From: Candidatus Nanohaloarchaea archaeon
Lineage (GTDB): Archaea; Nanohalarchaeota; Nanosalinia; Nanosalinales; Nanosalinaceae
Reading direction: 5' to 3'
DNA: 64,000 nt
Assembly: GCA_013343275.1 (NCBI GenBank)
Contig: CP046106.1
Coordinates: forward strand, 1 to 64,000
A model generated the notes under the pieces. It was not told where the DNA came from, did not search any database, and worked only from the letters and a program-made list of their open reading frames with translations. A program made the position numbers and the translations under genes. Shown piece after piece: positions 22,234 through 53,905 of the stretch (position 1 is the stretch's first letter; every line of letters starts with the position of its first letter).

Positions 22234-22860
22234 TTATCGGGCGCCTTCTGCTTCTCTTTCTCTTCTTTCTTTTTCTCTGACTGCTCTGACGTCGTCGTCT
22301 CCGTTTGCTGCGCCGATGATTTCCTGGGCGAGTGTTTCGACGGCGTCTTCTGAGGATGCGAGTCTTTTCTCGTATGATCCCTGTGAGAGAAGTCTTAGGG
22401 CCATGTCTACTCTTCTCTGCGGTGAGACGAGTACTGCTTTTCTGGCTCGTACTCCTCCTCTCTGGTATGTGACTACTTCTTCTACTGGTGCGGAGTTCTC
22501 GATTGCGTCGACTAGAATCTGGAATGGGTTCTCTCCGGTTTCTTCTTCGATTATTTCGAAGGCGTCTTCGATTATGTTCCAGAGTTTTTCGCTCTTTCCG
22601 ACGTTAATGCCGGAAGTAATGTAGTGCTTGTTGGATCTGTGTCCTGCAACGTAGAGGTGGTTGAGAAGTCTTTCAGCGATAGGTACGTCGGCCTTGTAGA
22701 ACTGTTTCTCGCTGTGTCTTCCTTTAGATCGTGGTGCGAGAATGTTTTCCAGGCTGATGTATCTTACGAGGCCTTCGTCTGAGATTTCTGCTTCGGATGC
22801 GTCCCATCGTCCGAACATCTTTATTTCGTCGTCTAGGTCTAGTGTTGCTGCGTCTGTCAT
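22234..22860 (-). CDS. rps7: 30S ribosomal protein S7
   Basis: AIENSAPVEE, SPQRRVDMALR. Confidence 0.97.
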   Translation of the reverse strand: MTDAATLDLDDEIKMFGRWDASEAEISDEGLVRYISLENILAPRSKGRHSEKQFYKADVPIAERLLNHLYVAGHRSNKHYITSGINVGKSEKLWNIIEDAFEIIEEETGENPFQILVDAIENSAPVEEVVTYQRGGVRARKAVLVSPQRRVDMALRLLSQGSYEKRLASSEDAVETLAQEIIGAANGDDDVRAVREKERREREAEGAR

Positions 22861-22862
22861 GA

Positions 22863-22919
22863 TCAAAATTCACCTGTGGTGAATTTTCGTGATTCCATAA
22901 AATCTTTGATTTTAGTCAT
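22863..22919 (-). repeat. Double-hairpin intergenic element / 18-aa mini-ORF (copy C)
   Basis: TAAAATC-AAA-GATTTTA plus AAAATTCACC-ACA-GGTGAATTTT; ATG..TGA 57 nt. Confidence 0.75.
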
Positions 22920-22923
22920 TTTA

Positions 22924-23346
22924 TCACCGTGTTGGTTTCTGCTTGTTTCCTGCGACGAGTTCTTCTAGGCTTACGCCGTTTACCTTGATTACTTTGTATC
23001 GTACTGTTGGAATGTCTCCCTTAGGCCCGGAGTCTGCTCCACCGATACCTTCAATCAGTACTTCGTCGTGCTCGTCGATGTGATCGATCGCTCCGTCTCC
23101 TGGAACGAAAGCTGTCAACTGTTTTCCGTTTTTAAGTAGCTGTACACGGACACATTTACGTAGTGCGGAGTTAGGCTGCTTTGCCTCGATAATACGTTTT
23201 TCTAGTACAATTCCTCTTCCCTGAGGTGAACCCTCTAGAGGGTCGGCCTGTTCCTTCAGGTTAAGCATTCTTCTCTTGTAATCTTTATCGCTCCAGCGGT
23301 ACTGCTGTCTCTTTTTCCGCATCTTCCGTGCGTTGTATAAACCCAT
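22924..23346 (-). CDS. rps12: 30S ribosomal protein S12
   Basis: [24 protein letters not shown]. Confidence 0.98.
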
Positions 23347-26634: not shown

Positions 26635-26725
26635 ATTATCTCCTTAGAAAAATGTTTTGTCGTGATGTCTGTAGTAATTAAAACAATCCTAGTTTTTATA
26701 AAGGGAATGGAGTTTGAGGGGAGTT

Positions 26726-26776
26726 AGAAAACACAATCCTGTGTTTTCTGCTACTCCGAAAATCTTCGATTTTCAT
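26726..26776 (-). repeat. Double-hairpin intergenic element (copy D)
   Basis: GAAAATC-GAA-GATTTTC plus AGAAAACACA-GGAT-TGTGTTTTCT; begins with ATG. Confidence 0.7.
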
Positions 26777-26779
26777 CGT

Positions 26780-27898
26780 TTATTCCTCGTCTTCTCCGAA
26801 TCCTGGTTTGAGGTCTACGGTGCCTGTACCGACTGGTACTGGCTGACCTACTATCAGGTTTTCGACGACTCCTTCAAGCTCGTCGGTTTCTCCTGCAAGT
26901 GTTCCTTCACGCAGGTGTTTCTTGGTTTCCTCGAATACTGAACGTGCGAGGATTGAGTCCTTGTCTCCGACGATTCCGTAACGTGTGGTTCCTTTGAGGT
27001 CGCCCTTACGTGTCATCATATCTGCGAGCAGCATGATGTGGCGGTCGTCGACTCCGATACCCTGTGCGGAAAGTGTCTGGTTGGTTTCCTCGATAATACG
27101 GTATCTGAGGGCCTCGACTCCGAGAACTCTCAGTACTTCCCAGAGGTCGTTACTGATGGTTCGTGTTTCATCTACTTCCTTGATCTTCAGGGTTTTACGC
27201 AGTGCTGTGCCTGCTGTCTGCAGCTGCCATTCTCCGTCTTCCTCATTGATAACAACCTGTTCAACACCTTTGATTCCCTTGATACGGGCCTCTTCTGTAT
27301 CGTTCTTCAGGTCTTTGACGTCTCTGAGGTCGTAGTCGTCTTCCGTGGATTCGAGGACAAGCGTTCCGTCTTCGTAGGTTACTTTGGCCTTCTTTACTGA
27401 TTCTTTGATTCTTGACTTGACGTCGTCTCTGTCTACGTCGTAGTCTTCGAGTAGTGCTTCGTTCAGCTCGTATTCGACACGTAGCTGCATGATGTCGATT
27501 GTGTCCTGTTTCACCAGGTCGTCGAATGTTATTTCACGAAGTTTACGTGCTACACGTTTTGCGTCTTCCTCGTTGTTGTAGTCTTCATGGAGGTAGACGT
27601 TCATGGATGGTGTGTCAGGTTCTCTTCTTGCGTCTACGATCTCGATCAGACGTGGAAGTCCTGCTGTCAGGTTAACCTGTGCTCCTCCTGCCTGGTGGTA
27701 TGTCTCCATAGTCAGCTGTGTTGCTGGCTCGGAGAGTGACTGTGCAGCTACGATACCGATGGCTTCACCGGGTTCGTACTGCATGTTCTCGTAGCGTTCC
27801 TTGATTTTCTCGTGTTCTTCGTCGGTGAGCTCTGTAGATTTCAGTCTTGGTGGGAGCTCTTTTGCTCTTTCTTTCCAGTTAAGTTCTTGTTCGCTCAT
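26780..27898 (-). CDS. rpoA2: RNA polymerase subunit A''
   Basis: PGEAIGIVAAQSLSEPATQ, GLPRLIEI. Confidence 0.98.
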   Translation of the reverse strand: MSEQELNWKERAKELPPRLKSTELTDEEHEKIKERYENMQYEPGEAIGIVAAQSLSEPATQLTMETYHQAGGAQVNLTAGLPRLIEIVDARREPDTPSMNVYLHEDYNNEEDAKRVARKLREITFDDLVKQDTIDIMQLRVEYELNEALLEDYDVDRDDVKSRIKESVKKAKVTYEDGTLVLESTEDDYDLRDVKDLKNDTEEARIKGIKGVEQVVINEEDGEWQLQTAGTALRKTLKIKEVDETRTISNDLWEVLRVLGVEALRYRIIEETNQTLSAQGIGVDDRHIMLLADMMTRKGDLKGTTRYGIVGDKDSILARSVFEETKKHLREGTLAGETDELEGVVENLIVGQPVPVGTGTVDLKPGFGEDEE

Positions 27899-27903
27899 CT
27901 TGA

Positions 27904-30378
27904 TCACCTCGTTTCAATGTCTGTAGAGATAAGGCCTCTATCAGATTTCTGTGGGTCAACTCCGTCTTCTCCAGCTCTGAACTGGACGATGTCTCCCTGT
28001 GCGTTACGGACTGACTGGTCGTCTTTGACCTTCAAGTCCTGCAGGGAGTTTGAGACACGTCTGTACATGTATCCGGATGTCTTTGTACGGAGTGACTTGT
28101 CCATCAGTGCCTTTCTCTGAGACATCTGGTGGAAGAACATCTCTACTTCGTCAAGGCCTCCCAGGATTGAAGATCCTACGAAACCTCTTGATTTCGGACT
28201 TAGCTCGCCCTTCTTGAAGTGGGATGTTGTTCTGTCCTTGTATCCTCTGTTGATTCTCTGATCTCTGACCGAGTTCTGGCCTAGCAGACCTGCCATTGTT
28301 GTAACGTTCTGTAGGGAGCCTCTTGCTCCTGAGTCTGCCATGACGTAGGCCGAGGAGTCGTCGTCGATCTCGTCTCTTACAAGATCTCCGATATCTGTGA
28401 ATACCTCGTTGAGAGTCTTTGTTACTCTGATCTCTCTGGTTTCCTCGACAGTCTTCCCTGTGATGGATTCCATCTGACCTTTCTCGTACTCTTTGATGAT
28501 TTCTTCTGTGTCCTCTACTGTCTCGTCGACGAGATCTCTGATCTTCTGTGTTGTCTCGTCCGGTACTTCAAGGTCGTCAAGACCGATGGAGAATCCTCTC
28601 TGTGTCAGGAAGATTGCTCCTACTCTTGAGACACGGTTGAGGAACTCTGCAACTTTGTCTGAACCGTATTCGATTGAAAGCTGCTGGATGATTTCTCCTC
28701 CGTAGTCTCCGAGTGCGTCCTCGTCCAGTACTCCCTCGACTAGTTCTCCGTCTTCGATGATTACTGTGTTGTCATCGTCTTCGTTGATTGTGAGAGAGAT
28801 GTCGTCTGGGATGAAGATTGAGACTATTTCACGGCCTGAGATCTCTTCCTTGTCTGGAAGTTCTTTCTCGTATTCGTTGGCCTCAGCGAGAAGGTTGAAT
28901 GCTCTTTCTCTGCTGAGTGTTCTGTCAGGCTGTGTCAGTAGGTATAGTCCGGACACGTAGTCCTGAAGCATACCCACGATCGGTCCTCCCATCTTCGGGG
29001 ACTTGATGTGTTCCTGTACTTTCATCAGTTCGTCGGCTTCTGCACGGGCCTCTTCTGTCTGTGGTACGTGCAGGTTCATCTCGTCTCCGTCGAAGTCTGC
29101 GTTGTATGGTGCACATACGTTCAGGTTAAGCCTGAATGTTCTGTGCGGCAGTACTTTGACTTCGTGTGCCATGATCGACATTCTGTGCAGGGATGGCTGA
29201 CGGTTGAATAGTACTGTGTCTCCGTCTTTCAGATGTCTCTCGACCTTCCATCCTTCTCCAGGTTCGATCGCTTCTTTAAGTTCTTCCAGGTTTTCTTCAG
29301 TAATTCTTCTTCGTGATCCATCAGGCTGGTATACGTAGTTTGCGCCTGGATGTGTGTCAGGCCCGTTTTCAAGCCATCCTTCGACTTTATCCCAGTTACG
29401 TTCTGTAACTTTCTCCGGGATAGATAGCTTCTTCGCTACCATGAACGGTACTCCGACTTCGTTGATCCCAATATTCGGGTCCGGGGAGATTACTGTTCTT
29501 GCGGAGAAGTTGACACGTTTACCGATAAGGTTCTGCCTGAAACGGCCTTGCTTGCCCTGTACACGCTCCATAACGGATTTCAGTGATCTGCCGGAACGGT
29601 GTCTTGCAGGTGGAACGCTGCTCATGTCGTTGTAGAACATTGTTGCAACGTGGTACTGCAGTAGTTCCCACAGGTCGTCGATAATGAAGTCAGGAGCCTC
29701 GATCTCTATATTGTTCTGAAGCCTCTTGTTGATCCTGATGATGTCGACCATCTTGTGTGTGATGTCGTCCTCAGATCTCTCTCCTGTTTCCAGTGTGATT
29801 GAAGGCCTCATTGTTACCGGTGGTACCGGGATGTGTGTTAGTATAAGGTCTTCAGGCCTTGCTCCTTCCATTCCGAGATCTGCTGCGATATCGTCAGGGA
29901 TCTTGGATAGTCTTTCCCGGATTTCGTCAGGCTTGATTTCCTCTCCGTCGATCTTGAATGTGTATGGCTTGTCTAGATCGACTTCTGGTACTTCTTCGCC
30001 TGTTTCAGGATCTTCTTTCATCCTGTTGCTTTTACGCAGGTTCTTGTCCAGGTCTTTGGCCAGGCAGGTTACGTTTCCGTTTTCGTTGACGTGTGTGAAA
30101 CGCAGTAGGTTCCTGATCTGCTTGGCGTACATTACGTGTGCTACTGGCTTGGAGAGTGTGATGATTCCGAAGTGACCTTTACATTCACGGATTTTTCCTC
30201 CGCATGTCTGGCAGGTCATTCCGGGATCGATGACTCCGAGCGCTGGATCCATTACTCCGTCCTCGACAGGGTATCCGTCTGCGTCGTAGACTTCTGCCTG
30301 ATCGATTTCTTTTACTGCGAGTTTCTGAAGTTTTTCTGCGCTCATGATTCCAAAGTCGATGCTTTCAATATCTTTCAT
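27904..30378 (-). CDS. rpoA1: RNA polymerase subunit A'
   Basis: NADFDGDEMN catalytic motif. Confidence 0.99.
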   Translation of the reverse strand: MKDIESIDFGIMSAEKLQKLAVKEIDQAEVYDADGYPVEDGVMDPALGVIDPGMTCQTCGGKIRECKGHFGIITLSKPVAHVMYAKQIRNLLRFTHVNENGNVTCLAKDLDKNLRKSNRMKEDPETGEEVPEVDLDKPYTFKIDGEEIKPDEIRERLSKIPDDIAADLGMEGARPEDLILTHIPVPPVTMRPSITLETGERSEDDITHKMVDIIRINKRLQNNIEIEAPDFIIDDLWELLQYHVATMFYNDMSSVPPARHRSGRSLKSVMERVQGKQGRFRQNLIGKRVNFSARTVISPDPNIGINEVGVPFMVAKKLSIPEKVTERNWDKVEGWLENGPDTHPGANYVYQPDGSRRRITEENLEELKEAIEPGEGWKVERHLKDGDTVLFNRQPSLHRMSIMAHEVKVLPHRTFRLNLNVCAPYNADFDGDEMNLHVPQTEEARAEADELMKVQEHIKSPKMGGPIVGMLQDYVSGLYLLTQPDRTLSRERAFNLLAEANEYEKELPDKEEISGREIVSIFIPDDISLTINEDDDNTVIIEDGELVEGVLDEDALGDYGGEIIQQLSIEYGSDKVAEFLNRVSRVGAIFLTQRGFSIGLDDLEVPDETTQKIRDLVDETVEDTEEIIKEYEKGQMESITGKTVEETREIRVTKTLNEVFTDIGDLVRDEIDDDSSAYVMADSGARGSLQNVTTMAGLLGQNSVRDQRINRGYKDRTTSHFKKGELSPKSRGFVGSSILGGLDEVEMFFHQMSQRKALMDKSLRTKTSGYMYRRVSNSLQDLKVKDDQSVRNAQGDIVQFRAGEDGVDPQKSDRGLISTDIETR

Positions 30379-35896: not shown

Positions 35897-35991
35897 GGAT
35901 AGATTTAATTACTGCAGTAATTCTTTTCTAATTATCTTTCAGCCCTCTAGAATATGTAGACTCAAAAATCTTCACTGACAACAGAACTCAT

Positions 35992-37950
35992 ATGTGTGGT
36001 ATAACAGGAGCTCCTAGAAAAGGAACAGTAAAAGCCTTGAACAAGCACCTCAATCATAGAGGCAGCTCCTGCGACGCAGTACAGACAGAGAACTACTCAA
36101 TAGGCCATTACCTCCACTCGGTAGTCGGAGAACTCCAGCAACCTATCAAAAATGAAGGACTGCTGACAGCAAACTGCGAAATATACAACTGGAAAGAGAT
36201 AAATGAAAAATATTGCTGGAAAACGGAAAATGATGCAGAAACACTGCTCAAGCTACTGGAAGAAAAAGGCCTTCAAGGTCTTGAAGAAATTGACGGAATA
36301 TACGCATTCGCCTATATCAAAGATAATGAACTAATTCTGGCACGGGATATTCTAGGTGTAAACCCGATCTGGTATACAGAGAAAGATGAGGAGTTTGCCT
36401 TTGCATCGGAGAAACAGGCTCTGGAAAAAGAAGGTCTTGAATGCCGGGAACTGCACCCGAGGCAGATACTGAAATATGATTTGGAAACAGGTGAGAGAAG
36501 CTTTGAACAGAGAGAATTCTTTGAAATCGACGTGGATGAGAATCTAGAAATAGAACAAGCAGCTGAAGAAATCAAGGAAAAATTTCTGGAGGCAGTTGAG
36601 AAAAGAGTGCCTGAAGGGGATGTAGGCCTTCTGTTTTCAGGAGGTGTTGATTCCACCTTGATTGCTGCGGCGTTACAGAAATTAGGTAAAGATTTCACGG
36701 CCTATACTGCTGGGATACAGCACGGAAATGTTGATGCTCCGCGGGACATGGACTGGGCTCAGGAAGTAGCTGAAGATATGGATATAGAACTTGAGTCCTA
36801 TGAAGCGGAACTTGAGGAGGTTGAGGAAACTCTGCCGAAACTCGTTGACTGGATATCAAGCACCTCTGTCGTGAAAAACGGCGTAGCACTGCCATTCCAT
36901 TTCGCCCTGAAGAACAGTAAAGAAAAAGAGCAAGTCATAATGTCAGGCCTTGGTTCGGAACAGCTTTACGCAGGATACCACCGTCAGCAAGGTTATCTGA
37001 ACAAGGAATGTCTTTCAGGCCTTAGATCAATTTTTGAACGAGATCTCTACCGTGACAACGTGATCAGCTTCAGGAACGGCCGTGAGATCAGGTTACCATT
37101 CCTTGATCATGATCTAATCGAGCATGCGTTGACTATACCTGAAGACTACAAGGTGAAAGATGAATACAGAAAATATGTGCTTAGAAGGGCTGCTGAAAAG
37201 CTAGGAGTGCCAGAAAAAGTCGCCTGGAGAGGTAAGACTGCAGCTCAGTACGGCAGCAACTTCGACAAGGCGATAGACAAGCTCTCCAGAAATAAGGACT
37301 TTGATCACAAACAGGAGTACCTTAACTCCCTGCGCAGTGAGCCGAATAACAGGATCGCAGCCCTTACTTCGGGAGGGAAAGATTCTAATGCTGCACTTTA
37401 CAGGGTACAGAGAAGGAATAACGAGATTTCCTGCCTGTTGACTCTGAGATCCGAAAATAAGGATAGCTACATGTTTGACTCGAAGAAATCTAGAGGACAC
37501 CTGGAGGAACAGGCGGAGAAACTAGGCATACCGTTACTTGCTCAGGAGACGGAGGGCGAGAAAGAGACAGAACTGGAAGACCTGAGAAAAGGCCTGGAAA
37601 AAGCCAGAGAAAGCTATAATGTTGAAGGAGTTGTTGCCGGAGCACTAGCCTCTACCTATCAGCGGGATAGAGTGGATAAAGTGGCAGAAGAAGTAGGGCT
37701 TAAAGTTTTCACTCCGCTCTGGCAGGAGGACCAGGCCCGTTACATGAGGTGGCTGATTAGGGAAGGTTTTGAGGTTGAGATTACAAGTGTAGCTACCAGA
37801 GGCCTCGATGAAAACTGGGAAGGTACAGTCCTAGATCAGGATAATATCGATGAGCTGCTGAATCTGGCTGAGGAATACAGGTTTAACGCTGCAGGAGAAG
37901 GAGGAGAGTACGAGACCCGTGTCGTAGGCTTTCCGGATTCCTTGACATAG
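35992..37950 (+). CDS. Fusion of asparagine synthetase B-like amidotransferase and diphthine-ammonia ligase (Dph6)
   Basis: N-terminal MCGI, FSGGVDS, RLPFLD; second PP-loop TSGGKDS, SYMF, GEGGEYET. Confidence 0.88.
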   Translation: MCGITGAPRKGTVKALNKHLNHRGSSCDAVQTENYSIGHYLHSVVGELQQPIKNEGLLTANCEIYNWKEINEKYCWKTENDAETLLKLLEEKGLQGLEEIDGIYAFAYIKDNELILARDILGVNPIWYTEKDEEFAFASEKQALEKEGLECRELHPRQILKYDLETGERSFEQREFFEIDVDENLEIEQAAEEIKEKFLEAVEKRVPEGDVGLLFSGGVDSTLIAAALQKLGKDFTAYTAGIQHGNVDAPRDMDWAQEVAEDMDIELESYEAELEEVEETLPKLVDWISSTSVVKNGVALPFHFALKNSKEKEQVIMSGLGSEQLYAGYHRQQGYLNKECLSGLRSIFERDLYRDNVISFRNGREIRLPFLDHDLIEHALTIPEDYKVKDEYRKYVLRRAAEKLGVPEKVAWRGKTAAQYGSNFDKAIDKLSRNKDFDHKQEYLNSLRSEPNNRIAALTSGGKDSNAALYRVQRRNNEISCLLTLRSENKDSYMFDSKKSRGHLEEQAEKLGIPLLAQETEGEKETELEDLRKGLEKARESYNVEGVVAGALASTYQRDRVDKVAEEVGLKVFTPLWQEDQARYMRWLIREGFEVEITSVATRGLDENWEGTVLDQDNIDELLNLAEEYRFNAAGEGGEYETRVVGFPDSLT

Positions 37951-38040
37951 TATTTCTATTTAAGCATGTCTTCTGCGGCCCTAGAGATATTGCTTACCTA
38001 GGCTGTCAAAATATCAGTTTTTGGTTTATTAACTCCAGAT

Positions 38041-52475: not shown

Positions 52476-52910
52476 TTATTTCTGGCTCTCAAGCCAGTCG
52501 ATTAACGTTGTACGGTTTTTGTTGTCTTTCTCTGCTTCCATCGCAGCGTCCCAGTCGACCTCTTCCATGTCTTGAAGTGCGTCTTTGGCGTCCGTGATGG
52601 TTCCTGAGACTGCTTCTCTGTAGTCTTCAGTTACCTCTACTTCTTCCTCTTCTAGGGCTTCTTTCTCAAGTTCTTCATCGTAGTCGAAGTCTTCAAGGAC
52701 TTTGAGTGTTGCCTTTGATTTCTGGCTTCCGAAACCTGTGTAGATAGATTCTACTTCGATGCTTTCGGTTTCGATACCGTTTTCTGCTGCAACGCGCGAT
52801 TTTACGTCTTCTTCGCTCGGTGTAGCCTCGCCTTCATGGTTGAGACTTACTTCTACTTCTCTCCTGTCTAGGAGAGGGTTTTCTCTTACTGCTGTGATGT
52901 TTGCTTCCAT
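52476..52910 (-). CDS. rps24e: 30S ribosomal protein S24e with C-terminal extension
   Basis: ENPLLDRREV, ATPS, TGFG. Confidence 0.92.
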   Translation of the reverse strand: MEANITAVRENPLLDRREVEVSLNHEGEATPSEEDVKSRVAAENGIETESIEVESIYTGFGSQKSKATLKVLEDFDYDEELEKEALEEEEVEVTEDYREAVSGTITDAKDALQDMEEVDWDAAMEAEKDNKNRTTLIDWLESQK

Positions 52911-52967
52911 TCAAAAATCGCCCCCGCGATTTTCTTCTTGTCCAGAAATTCTTTGAATTTCGTACAT
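52911..52967 (-). repeat. Double-hairpin intergenic element / 18-aa mini-ORF (copy B)
   Basis: GAAATTC-AAA-GAATTTC plus AAAATCGC-GGGG-GCGATTTT; ATG..TGA 57 nt. Confidence 0.75.
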
Positions 52968-52979
52968 AGTATTCACGTT

Positions 52980-53168
52980 TTATTTGACTCTTATTGCGTA
53001 TTTTCCTGGAGTGTTAATTTCCAGTTTCTCTGCGATTTCAGAATCTTCGGGATCGTAGATAACTACTAGTCCGCTCCAAGAATCGGATAGATCGTTGTTC
53101 TTGCATACAGGGCATTCTTGGGCATCTTCTACAATACGGTTACAGTTTTTACATGCTTTTTCAGCCAT
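52980..53168 (-). CDS. spt4: Transcription elongation factor Spt4 (RpoE'')
   Basis: KACKNC..CPVC..WSG..PGKYAIRV. Confidence 0.96.
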   Translation of the reverse strand: MAEKACKNCNRIVEDAQECPVCKNNDLSDSWSGLVVIYDPEDSEIAEKLEINTPGKYAIRVK

Positions 53169-53224
53169 TAGAAAACCACCTTATGGTTTTCGGCCTGTCC
53201 AGAAAATCTTTGATTTTCGTACAT
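53168..53224 (-). repeat. Double-hairpin intergenic element / 18-aa mini-ORF (copy A)
   Basis: GAAAATC-AAA-GATTTTC plus GAAAACCA-TAAGG-TGGTTTTC; TAATG overlaps at both ends. Confidence 0.78.
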
Positions 53225-53802
53225 TATTCTTCACCTTCTTCCTCTTCTTCGGTCTCTTCCTGCTCTTCTTCGTACTGTTCGATCCATTCTTCTTTTCCGA
53301 GGCCTGGCTGTCTCATTGTCAGATTGATCTTGTTGGTGTCTTCCTTTCCTAGTGAGACTGCGATTATTCGGGCTGTGACGACATCTCCTGTTTCAAGTGT
53401 GAACTGGTTCTCTTCTGAGACCAGCATGTTGTTCTCCTCGTCGTGGTTGACGTACTCGTCCATTACCTGAGATACGTGGCATAGGCCGTCGAAAGGCCCG
53501 ATTCTGATAAATGCTCCGAAGCTTGTTACGTCTACTACTTCTCCGAATACAACTTCGTGGAGCTCTGGTTCGTATACAAGTGCTGAGTATTCTACATCGT
53601 AGTGTACTCCTGCGTCCTCTGGCTCGATTTCTCCTCCTTCAACGGAGTTTACTTCCTCGATTGCGAGGACTACTCCTACTTCAGGACTGATATCTCCTTC
53701 TGTTTCTGCTTTAAGGCCTTCTGTGACGCTTTCCTTTACGTTCTCTCCCAGATGCTCTGGGGGAACTCTTACTGATTCTTGTATTGTTTTTCTTTTGTAC
53801 AT
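53224..53802 (-). CDS. rpoE1: RNA polymerase subunit E'
   Basis: VRVPP, FGAFIRIGPFDGLCHVSQ, LTMRQPGLGK. Confidence 0.97.
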   Translation of the reverse strand: MYKRKTIQESVRVPPEHLGENVKESVTEGLKAETEGDISPEVGVVLAIEEVNSVEGGEIEPEDAGVHYDVEYSALVYEPELHEVVFGEVVDVTSFGAFIRIGPFDGLCHVSQVMDEYVNHDEENNMLVSEENQFTLETGDVVTARIIAVSLGKEDTNKINLTMRQPGLGKEEWIEQYEEEQEETEEEEEGEE

Positions 53803-53905
53803 TTGAGACACTACCTCCATTCAGAGGAAAGGGAAGTCTGGAAGGGTATAAGCCCCTTCTTAATCTTCTACCTCTGTGGAACATTTAACAGGTTGACGAC
53901 AATTT

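Follow-up and report, generated by a model that had tools for sequence, protein, structure and literature searches.

A short double-hairpin repeat occurs four times in the first 64,000 nucleotides of the genome of a Candidatus Nanohaloarchaea archaeon, and it belongs to a dispersed family whose copies between co-directional genes nearly always carry a mini-open reading frame (mini-ORF) that bridges the two genes. The stretch analyzed, referred to here as the window, covers the opening 64 kb of a genome (G000; contig CP046106.1) that consists of one contig of 915,886 bp with 47% G+C. The explanation that we regard as the best, and as reasonably probable, is that the repeat is a palindromic cassette that is gained and lost, and that its surviving junction copies relay ribosomes from one gene to the next by termination-reinitiation. 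Judged from the sequences, the reading frame is a maintained feature of the junction copies.

Members of the family were searched for by regular expression, by nhmmer, and by covariance models built in two rounds. The first model (R1) was seeded from two equal-length copies because MAFFT misplaced hairpin 2 owing to differing spacer lengths, and the second (R2) was rebuilt from the model-guided alignment. We classified 113 matches, of which G000 contributed 24, the complete genome of the congener G001 contributed 8, and loci from about 20 relatives contributed the other 81, and scored a match as bridging when it had a start codon, a frame running through both hairpins, and a stop near the start of an ORF of at least 50 codons. 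Seventy-eight matches were bridging, 3 lay at a junction without such a frame, 1 was in frame inside a long gene, and 31 lay elsewhere. A bridging frame of 14 to 59 codons was present in 78 of the 81 copies at co-directional junctions, compared to 2 of the 113 matches when the antisense strand was read as a control. The earlier note on this DNA had proposed that ATG and stop are coupled independently of the peptide frame and had named random lengths and frames, with no such coupling, as speaking against it; these counts are the opposite of that pattern. The mini-ORFs began with ATG in 60 copies, GTG in 14, and TTG in 4. The distance from their stop to the next start was -4 in 32 copies, -1 in 22, 0 in 21, +1 in 2, and +3 in 1, which places 75 of the 78 at -4, -1, or 0. 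The same three distances separated the upstream stop from the mini-ORF start in 30 of 65 scorable copies, the rest being mostly at 1 to 12 nt. When start offset, core length, and tail were each reduced modulo 3, eight of the nine in-frame combinations were found to occur, and independence of the three would predict 35% of copies in frame. Among the 81 junction copies, an ATG was present in 66, an open frame in 64, a close stop in 63, and GGTG in 64; the corresponding numbers for the 31 non-junction copies were 11, 9, 1, and 0. Long variants also stayed open, including a nested form with an additional 48 nt (G002) and four-hairpin forms of 35 codons (G008 and G001), and one orthologous copy pair differed by a 3-nt indel.

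These frames yield short, conserved-looking peptides that recur (MKIADF... and M.ENQRFSG...RGDF), as they might if the mini-ORFs were genes for a functional small peptide. However, copies differ in the frame in which they read the same nucleotides, with all three in use, and the lengths vary from 14 to 59 residues. Because all three frames are used, the apparent peptide families are better described as frame artifacts of one DNA consensus, and we give the small-peptide explanation almost no credence. At the rpoE'>spt4 junction of relative G024 (locus L065; pairs are written upstream>downstream throughout), a 104-nt element read by eye apparently contains two mini-ORFs in series: an ATG in the first hairpin loop opens a frame ending in GAGTGA, and the GTG within that ending opens a frame ending in TGA-ATG at spt4. 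The scripted classification of the same locus gave a single 35-codon frame from an upstream GTG.

The four copies in the window were re-read directly from the sequence and lie, all on the minus strand, where the earlier note had placed them:

53168..53224, minus strand: copy 1, RpoE'>Spt4 junction, 57-nt mini-ORF reading MYENQRFSGQAENHKVVF and a stop
53218-53202, minus strand: copy 1 hairpin 1, GAAAATC-AAA-GATTTTC, followed by a spacer at 53201-53192
53191-53171, minus strand: copy 1 hairpin 2, containing AAGGTG
52911..52967, minus strand: copy 2, Spt4>S24e junction, 57-nt mini-ORF reading MYEIQRISGQEENRGGDF and a stop
52961-52945, minus strand: copy 2 hairpin 1, GAAATTC-AAA-GAATTTC
52934-52913, minus strand: copy 2 hairpin 2, 9 bp with a closing G-U pair and the weak Shine-Dalgarno (SD) sequence GGGGGCGA
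22863..22919, minus strand: copy 3, S12>S7 junction, 57-nt mini-ORF reading MTKIKDFMESRKFTTGEF and a stop
22914-22898, minus strand: copy 3 hairpin 1, TAAAATC-AAA-GATTTTA
22888-22865, minus strand: copy 3 hairpin 2, 10 bp, containing CAGGTG
26696..26776, minus strand: copy 4, after rpoA'', with its double-hairpin core at 26774-26727
26774-26758, minus strand: copy 4 hairpin 1, GAAAATC-GAA-GATTTTC; hairpin 2 at 26748-26727, without GGTG

With its filters off, the covariance model returned exactly these four places in the window (E ≤ 1.3e-5). When one mismatch was allowed, the hairpin-1 motif was found 3 times in the window versus 0.03 expected, and none of 100 shuffles reached 3. The four hairpin-1 arms, with the compensatory variants that had been described for them, were re-read at their positions, as were the three 57-nt ORFs and their peptides; the stops of these ORFs are at -1, 0, and +2 nt relative to the following ATG. 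The ATG of copy 1 overlaps the rpoE' TAA, and its own TAA overlaps the spt4 ATG, each overlap reading TAATG. This copy scored 49 bits with R1 and 63.7 bits with R2, both of its hairpins are predicted in its minimum free energy (MFE) fold (-18.6 kcal/mol), and its site is empty in G001, with TAATG as the direct repeat. In copy 2, the TGA is followed immediately by the rps24e ATG, and the site is also empty in G001; the Spt4>S24e junctions of G002, G012, and G016 carry the same ATGTACGAAATTC... variant, and that of G008 carries a related four-hairpin form that begins ATGTACAAAAATC. Copy 3 ends in a TGA 2 nt ahead of the rps7 ATG at 22860, and its site is empty in G001, with ATGAC flanking both sides. 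Copy 4 had been described as ending at 26726, which did not hold: its ATG at 26776 opens a frame of 26 codons that passes a TAA just after hairpin 2 and continues to 26696 (MKIEDFRSSRKHRIVFSNSPQTPFPL and a stop, the TAA at 26698-26696). No gene starts directly downstream of copy 4, which has an MFE fold of -22.8 kcal/mol and is a 57-nt insert relative to G001. Directly 3' of it, within 26690-26720 on the minus strand, lies CTTTATAAAAAC, in which the run-on frame ends and which we take to be a TATA-box-like word and probably the promoter of the next transcription unit.

Across the family, the order of parts is a start codon, hairpin 1, a spacer, hairpin 2, and a stop fused to the start of the next gene, within a double hairpin of about 45 to 50 nt and a core of 36 to 52 nt. 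Hairpin 1 has the consensus GAAAATC-nnn-GATTTTC, with a 7-bp stem and a 3-nt loop in the window copies; the spacer is about 9 to 10 nt and often reads TGG...CA; and hairpin 2 has the form GAAAAxx-loop-xxTTTTC, is 8 to 10 bp and AAAA/TTTT-closed in the window copies, and spells GAGGTG across its loop and 3' arm. The outer arms, GAAAA(T)C...G(N)TTTTC, are mutually inverted but are also the arms of separate hairpins, so this terminal-repeat feature is only weakly diagnostic. Both stems show compensatory changes, which bears out the claim of a dispersed repeat with real hairpins. Among 14 sense copies in a model-fitted alignment, 98.6% of cells were paired and 11 of 16 pairs had changed on both sides; none of 500 shuffles reached the observed pairing, partners slid out of register paired at 34 to 65%, and the hairpin-1 pattern was also present in a plain MAFFT alignment. 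Both hairpins were predicted in the MFE folds of 13 of 15 copies. The proposal that hairpin 2 buries the SD of the next gene was partly correct: in the MFE folds, the GTG and the bases after it lie in the 3' arm, and the GAG or AAG lies in the loop. Because the 3' end of the 16S rRNA is GGATCACCTCCA, GAGGTG(A) is a true SD complement and GGGGGCGA a weak one. An SD-like 4-mer was found ahead of the mini-ORF in 56 of 72 copies and ahead of the downstream gene in 70 of 72, compared to a background of 19%. This arrangement suggests that the mini-ORF would now use the old SD at the end of gene 1 and that the element would bring a new SD for gene 2. When four loci that together contain six copies were scanned against Rfam (E ≤ 1), the only matches were two chance ones to microRNAs, both away from the copies.

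We compared the whole genome of G001, which has approximately 80% nucleotide identity to G000, at the sites of 16 bridging copies; the calls of filled and empty sites rest on clean cases and by-eye reading, as the roughly 20% divergence misled automatic alignment at several sites. Thirteen sites were precisely empty in G001, one copy was shared (L22>S3, 94% identical), one was a decayed remnant, and one was replaced by a different four-hairpin element. In the empty alleles of G001, the genes either overlap or are separated by a plain, short SD-ATG spacer, and the inserts are about 50 to 57 nt long. These precise empty sites at 13 of 16 positions support the insertion and loss behavior that the earlier note had expected of the repeat, and the 13 copies, missing from a congener whose junctions are intact, are dispensable. 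The repeats flanking the inserts consist of start-codon or stop-start-overlap sequence (ATG, AATG, ATGAC, TAATG, AATGAT, and AATAATGA), and exact direct repeats between filled and empty sites measured 0, 1, 5 (TAATG), 6 (AATGAT), or 8 (AATAATGA) nt. Traffic in the other direction was also seen: one G001 copy, with TAATGC flanking it, occupies a junction that has no insert in G000. Another G001 copy lies in frame within a 685-amino-acid protein, adding 17 residues (ESENRGFSGSQKISDLQRK), and is the one such case among the 113 matches; the orthologous gene in the window (about 35956-38000, plus strand, insertion point near 37341, 680-amino-acid class) lacks the 17-residue insert, and the flanks are 82% identical. 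Among 29 relatives, the rpoE'>spt4 spacer was at least 45 nt in 10 and at most 13 nt in 18, and the spt4>rps24e spacer was at least 45 nt in 7. Loss of copies by slippage between the flanking repeats across the hairpins is a plausible inference.

Imperfect direct repeats of 14 to 26 nt, running from SD to start, occur on both sides of the insert at 676577-676650, 508075-508150, and 867650-867725, and at these three sites the end of the upstream gene resembles the tail of the mini-ORF (RGDFE and a stop). The imperfect repeats may have been left by the insertion mechanism, or they may descend from an earlier copy that was deleted in part. The possibility that the target serves as the template for the 3' arm of hairpin 2, raised by imperfect repeats of 18 to 26 nt at 676577, 508075, and Top6B>A, was set aside; because subfamilies share that 3' end across loci, a simpler account of the resemblance is that insert and target are both SD-to-ATG segments.

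A link to IS200/IS605 elements or to repetitive extragenic palindromic (REP) sequences and their RAYT transposases had also been suggested, and this did not survive the search: the Y1 transposase family PF01797 was absent from G000 and from 24 of 24 genomes of its family-level group and matched only 1 of 41 genomes, G000 not being that one, and the control genomes did match. The presence of TnpB did not track copy number, as G000, G008, G016, and G021 have copies but no TnpB over the cutoff and G014 and G018 show the reverse.

The 16 pairs bridged in G000 are mostly partners in one complex. By Pfam, the ribosomal protein pairs are S12>S7, L44e>S27e, L23>L2, L22>S3, L14>L24, L5>S14, and S5>L30, and the other pairs are RpoE'>Spt4>S24e, Rrp4>Rrp41, AtpA>AtpB, E1alpha>E1beta, TopoVI-B>A, OapB>OapC, ferredoxin>FAD oxidoreductase, and aminotransferase>prephenate dehydrogenase. 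The gene names that had been assigned around the window copies were all borne out by Pfam:

53224..53820, minus strand: rpoE' (Rpb7-like), upstream of copy 1; Pfam S1 and SHS2_Rpb7-N
52980..53168, minus strand: spt4 (62 amino acids), between copies 1 and 2; Pfam Spt4, 4.8e-17
52476..52910, minus strand: rps24e, downstream of copy 2; Pfam Ribosomal_S24e
22924..23346, minus strand: rps12, upstream of copy 3; Pfam Ribosom_S12_S23, 8.5e-44
22234..22860, minus strand: rps7, downstream of copy 3; Pfam Ribosomal_S7, 2.3e-29
26780..27907, minus strand: rpoA'', before copy 4; Pfam RNA_pol_Rpb1_5, 1.2e-49

In the available text of Huber et al. 2023 (PMC10666635), termination-reinitiation is described as needing -4/-1 overlaps or very short gaps and as nearly abolished by a distance of about 20 nt, and overlaps are described as enriched among genes of heteromeric complexes. 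Given that effect of distance, a bare insert of 50 to 57 nt would be expected to uncouple these pairs. A mini-ORF with overlap geometry downstream (75/78) and often upstream would restore the coupling as two serial hand-overs. In nanohaloarchaea, the short palindromic cassette lies exactly at the start codon of the second gene in tightly coupled pairs and comes and goes at the DNA level, and from this layout we infer the following mechanism. Hairpin 2 would limit free initiation at gene 2, and ribosomes coming from gene 1, or loading on the old SD, would start at the ATG of the mini-ORF. Translation of about 17 codons would unwind both hairpins, termination would take place at a stop overlapping or abutting the start of gene 2 (-4, -1, or 0), and reinitiation there would be helped by the SD melted out of hairpin 2. 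The insertion of about 50 to 57 nt would thereby leave termination-reinitiation coupling unbroken.

Several points weigh against a gained-and-lost cassette that relays ribosomes. The 81 matches from relatives are biased toward junctions because their loci were chosen around model matches, mostly in ribosomal protein operons; in the unbiased whole-genome sets, 14 of 24 matches in G000 and 3 of 8 in G001 were bridging. Three junction copies lack a bridging frame, and unrelated fillers at the rpoE'>spt4 junctions of G002, G006, and G007 do not bridge. The counts are not independent, because copies are related by descent. Openness alone is weak evidence, as the arms are intrinsically stop-poor: core frames were open in 239 of 339 cases on the sense strand and 201 of 339 on the antisense strand, and the argument rests on the placement of starts and stops. 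Mononucleotide shuffles, of which 25% were open, exaggerate the effect, as real cores contain few stop codons on either strand, and for this reason the antisense strand and the non-junction copies served as controls. The SD is only partly paired in hairpin 2, and the relay does not explain why the hairpins themselves are kept. A target-site duplication of fixed length was not found between filled sites and their empty counterparts in G001, and no mobilizing enzyme was found in G000 among the only families searched, namely, PF01797, PF07282 (TnpB, over the cutoff), and PF01609 (DDE_Tnp_1).

The identity of some copies across genera raises the alternative that the element is a domesticated regulator, one that the host actively retains because an SD-occluding hairpin and a relay ORF enforce or tune the stoichiometry of subunit pairs or stabilize segments of polycistronic mRNA. 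Between different genera, element identity was 92% at L5>S14, 89% at L44e>S27e, 89% at L23>L2, and 94% at L22>S3, versus 46%, 41%, 56%, and 66%, respectively, at 4-fold degenerate sites. Copies at the same junction also show compensatory stem changes, for example GAAATTC/GAATTTC versus GAATTTC/GAAATTC at Spt4>S24e, and junction-specific variants persist across genera. Such above-neutral identity and compensatory change fit selection acting in place. However, none of the 13 copies absent from the congener is required there, copy number is patchy, the same subfamily sequence occurs at different junctions across genera, and one junction can hold different subfamilies. Because subfamilies shift junctions between genera, the conservation may belong to the family, through mobility, transfer, or conversion, and not to the site. 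It is for these two reasons, dispensability at 13 of 16 sites and conservation that may be family-level, that we rank the gained-and-lost cassette above an adaptive device, which we consider unlikely. A bolder version joins the two, and we offer it only tentatively: a transposase-independent, "translation-transparent" cassette might copy itself into start codons through shared microhomology (SD...TAATG/ATGA), carrying a relay ORF and a replacement SD, and some of the copies conserved across genera might have become fixed as modules that tune subunit stoichiometry in ribosomal and RNA polymerase operons.

The family is larger than its bridging members. The covariance model gave 24 sense-strand matches in G000, 14 of which bridge two co-directional genes, and two further bridging copies, at 144932 and 867675, are too diverged for the model. 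The TopoVI-B>A copy (867667-867722) has lost hairpin 2 and keeps a bridging frame of 16 codons (MKIKDFPVYLHTEGEK and a stop) and TAATG, and at 214054-214091 there is a half copy consisting of hairpin 2 only, with a 9-codon frame (MTETRGVFE and a stop) that ends in ATGA. A tandem array of four GAAA...TTTC hairpins follows a gene at 434617-434719 on the minus strand, where G001 has two. R2 matches were present in 31 of 41 relatives at E ≤ 0.1 and, at E ≤ 1e-4, in 37 of 70 genomes of the phylum; by family-level group, they were found in 34 of 49 genomes of the organism's own group, 2 of 8 of a second, and 0 of 10 of a third, and copy number, which spanned 0 to 17 matches across the 70 genomes, was patchy even within genera.

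The copies outside junctions are the ones that bear on an RNA- or DNA-level role, such as a terminator or attenuator, a 3'-end stabilizer, a processing site, or a protein-binding palindrome, for which the mini-ORF would be incidental. These 31 of the 113 matches are essentially without an ORF or SD, with ORF-less copies also following genes, and 3 of the 10 non-junction copies in G000 adjoin tRNA genes, all three being ORF-less and SD-less:

600506-600553: copy 1 nt before tRNA-Pro
542407-542452: copy with a 2-nt overlap with the 3' end of tRNA-Gly
861332-861378: copy 19 nt after tRNA-Arg

The relatives show similar tRNA-flanking copies, and the tRNA-adjoining copies might act as terminators or processing signals. 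Archaeal terminators are T-runs, and each 3' arm of the element ends in TTTTC, a short T-run. The hairpins are also the sole feature common to all copies. What such a role leaves unexplained is the placement of starts and stops (78/81 at junctions versus 2/113 antisense), the compensation of lengths modulo 3, and the in-frame 48-nt and 3-nt indels. There is, moreover, no matching Rfam family, and a sequence-specific binding site in duplex DNA is at odds with inner stems that vary while their complementarity is kept. We judge the RNA- or DNA-level role improbable as the explanation of the family.

One copy outside the window, at 875500-875549 of G000, lies in a terminal loop of a match to RNase P RNA on the minus strand (875212-875594; score of 62.8 bits, under Rfam's gathering score of 84), where it replaces the loop of an ACCG...CGGT helix that is a plain, short loop in G001. 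If the element were intron-like and cut out of the RNA, by the archaeal splicing endonuclease for instance, this copy and the one in frame in the 685-amino-acid protein would be harmless, as would those in operons, and the outer arms (GAAAA...TTTTC) can pair with each other. Splicing would, however, leave no selection for the frame, the stop-start fusion, or the internal SD, and no bulge-helix-bulge geometry was identified, although no formal search for it was made. An intron-like insert is very improbable.

Several known systems resemble the gained-and-lost, ribosome-relaying cassette in part. The Rickettsia palindromic elements (RPEs) are likewise frame-preserving palindromic repeats, found in and between genes in the reduced genome of a host-dependent organism and tolerated because reading frames stay open through them, and the accessible text on them (PMC10969869) describes bacterial elements of about 150 bp (a unit of 100 to 150 bp) that mostly reside within coding genes, forming translational fusions with a conserved peptide. 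Unlike these, the nanohaloarchaeal unit is 45 to 57 nt, lies mainly at start codons between genes in any frame and with differing peptides, and carries its own SD and stop-start fusion; in-gene, in-frame insertion is rare here (1/113) and the rule for RPEs, and no relationship in sequence is expected. The mitochondrial double-hairpin elements (the Allomyces DHE and sponge RHE) share two adjacent short hairpins and a dispersed distribution. As portrayed in the available part of PMC2800124, which cites Paquin et al. 2000, their insertion frequency differs between close species, they have intergenic and in-gene copies, they are kept in transcripts, and they show no clear target duplication. They belong to organelle genomes, and a relay ORF, an SD, and stop-start geometry are not among the features described in that part of the source. 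The nanohaloarchaeal element is closest in behavior to RPEs and closest in shape and dynamics to the mitochondrial elements.

REP/BIME sequences with RAYT and the IS200/IS605-derived PATEs are also short hairpin repeats between operon genes, and roles in termination and mRNA stability have been proposed for REPs in the text available from PMC3733652; unlike these systems, 40 of 41 genomes here have no Y1 transposase/RAYT gene, and the element has no GTAG/CGTC tag. Classical MITEs (miniature inverted-repeat transposable elements), such as Correia, ERIC, and the archaeal SM elements, are similarly multicopy, with no transposase gene, inverted-repeat ends, and presence/absence polymorphism, and they can include small ORFs or regulatory signals, going by the accessible portion of PMC10969869. 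The element matches them in copy number and insertion polymorphism (24 matches in G000 versus 8 in G001, with sites empty in both directions) but is smaller, has exact flanking direct repeats that vary from 0 to 8 nt, and has no parent insertion sequence among the transposase families searched. The gene pairs of Huber et al. 2019 and 2023 share the -4/-1/0 stop-start geometry and the heteromeric-complex genes, as seen in the available text of both papers (PMC6728339 and PMC10666635); the present case differs in having two junctions in series around a spacer ORF of 14 to 35 codons that is an inserted repeat. Neither this element, for nanohaloarchaea or DPANN archaea, nor a relay of this kind was described in the literature searched, in which subscription journals were sparsely covered. 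What appears to be novel is a relay in which stop-start junctions follow one another at the start codons of coupled genes and the element supplies its own replacement SD.

In genomes smaller than 1 Mb, where there is almost no room between genes, selfish repeats would be expected to find no place, and this family represents one solution: to occupy a coupled gene's start codon and remain translatable. The filled and empty alleles that it provides, dozens of them at shared operon junctions, form a natural test set for the way in which subunit ratios in archaea are set by termination-reinitiation, SD occlusion, and hairpin unwinding, and the element offers a compact natural part of about 57 nt for building coupled operons. 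As an archaeal counterpart to the RPEs and the mitochondrial double-hairpin elements, the family suggests convergent evolution of frame-preserving palindromes in reduced genomes.

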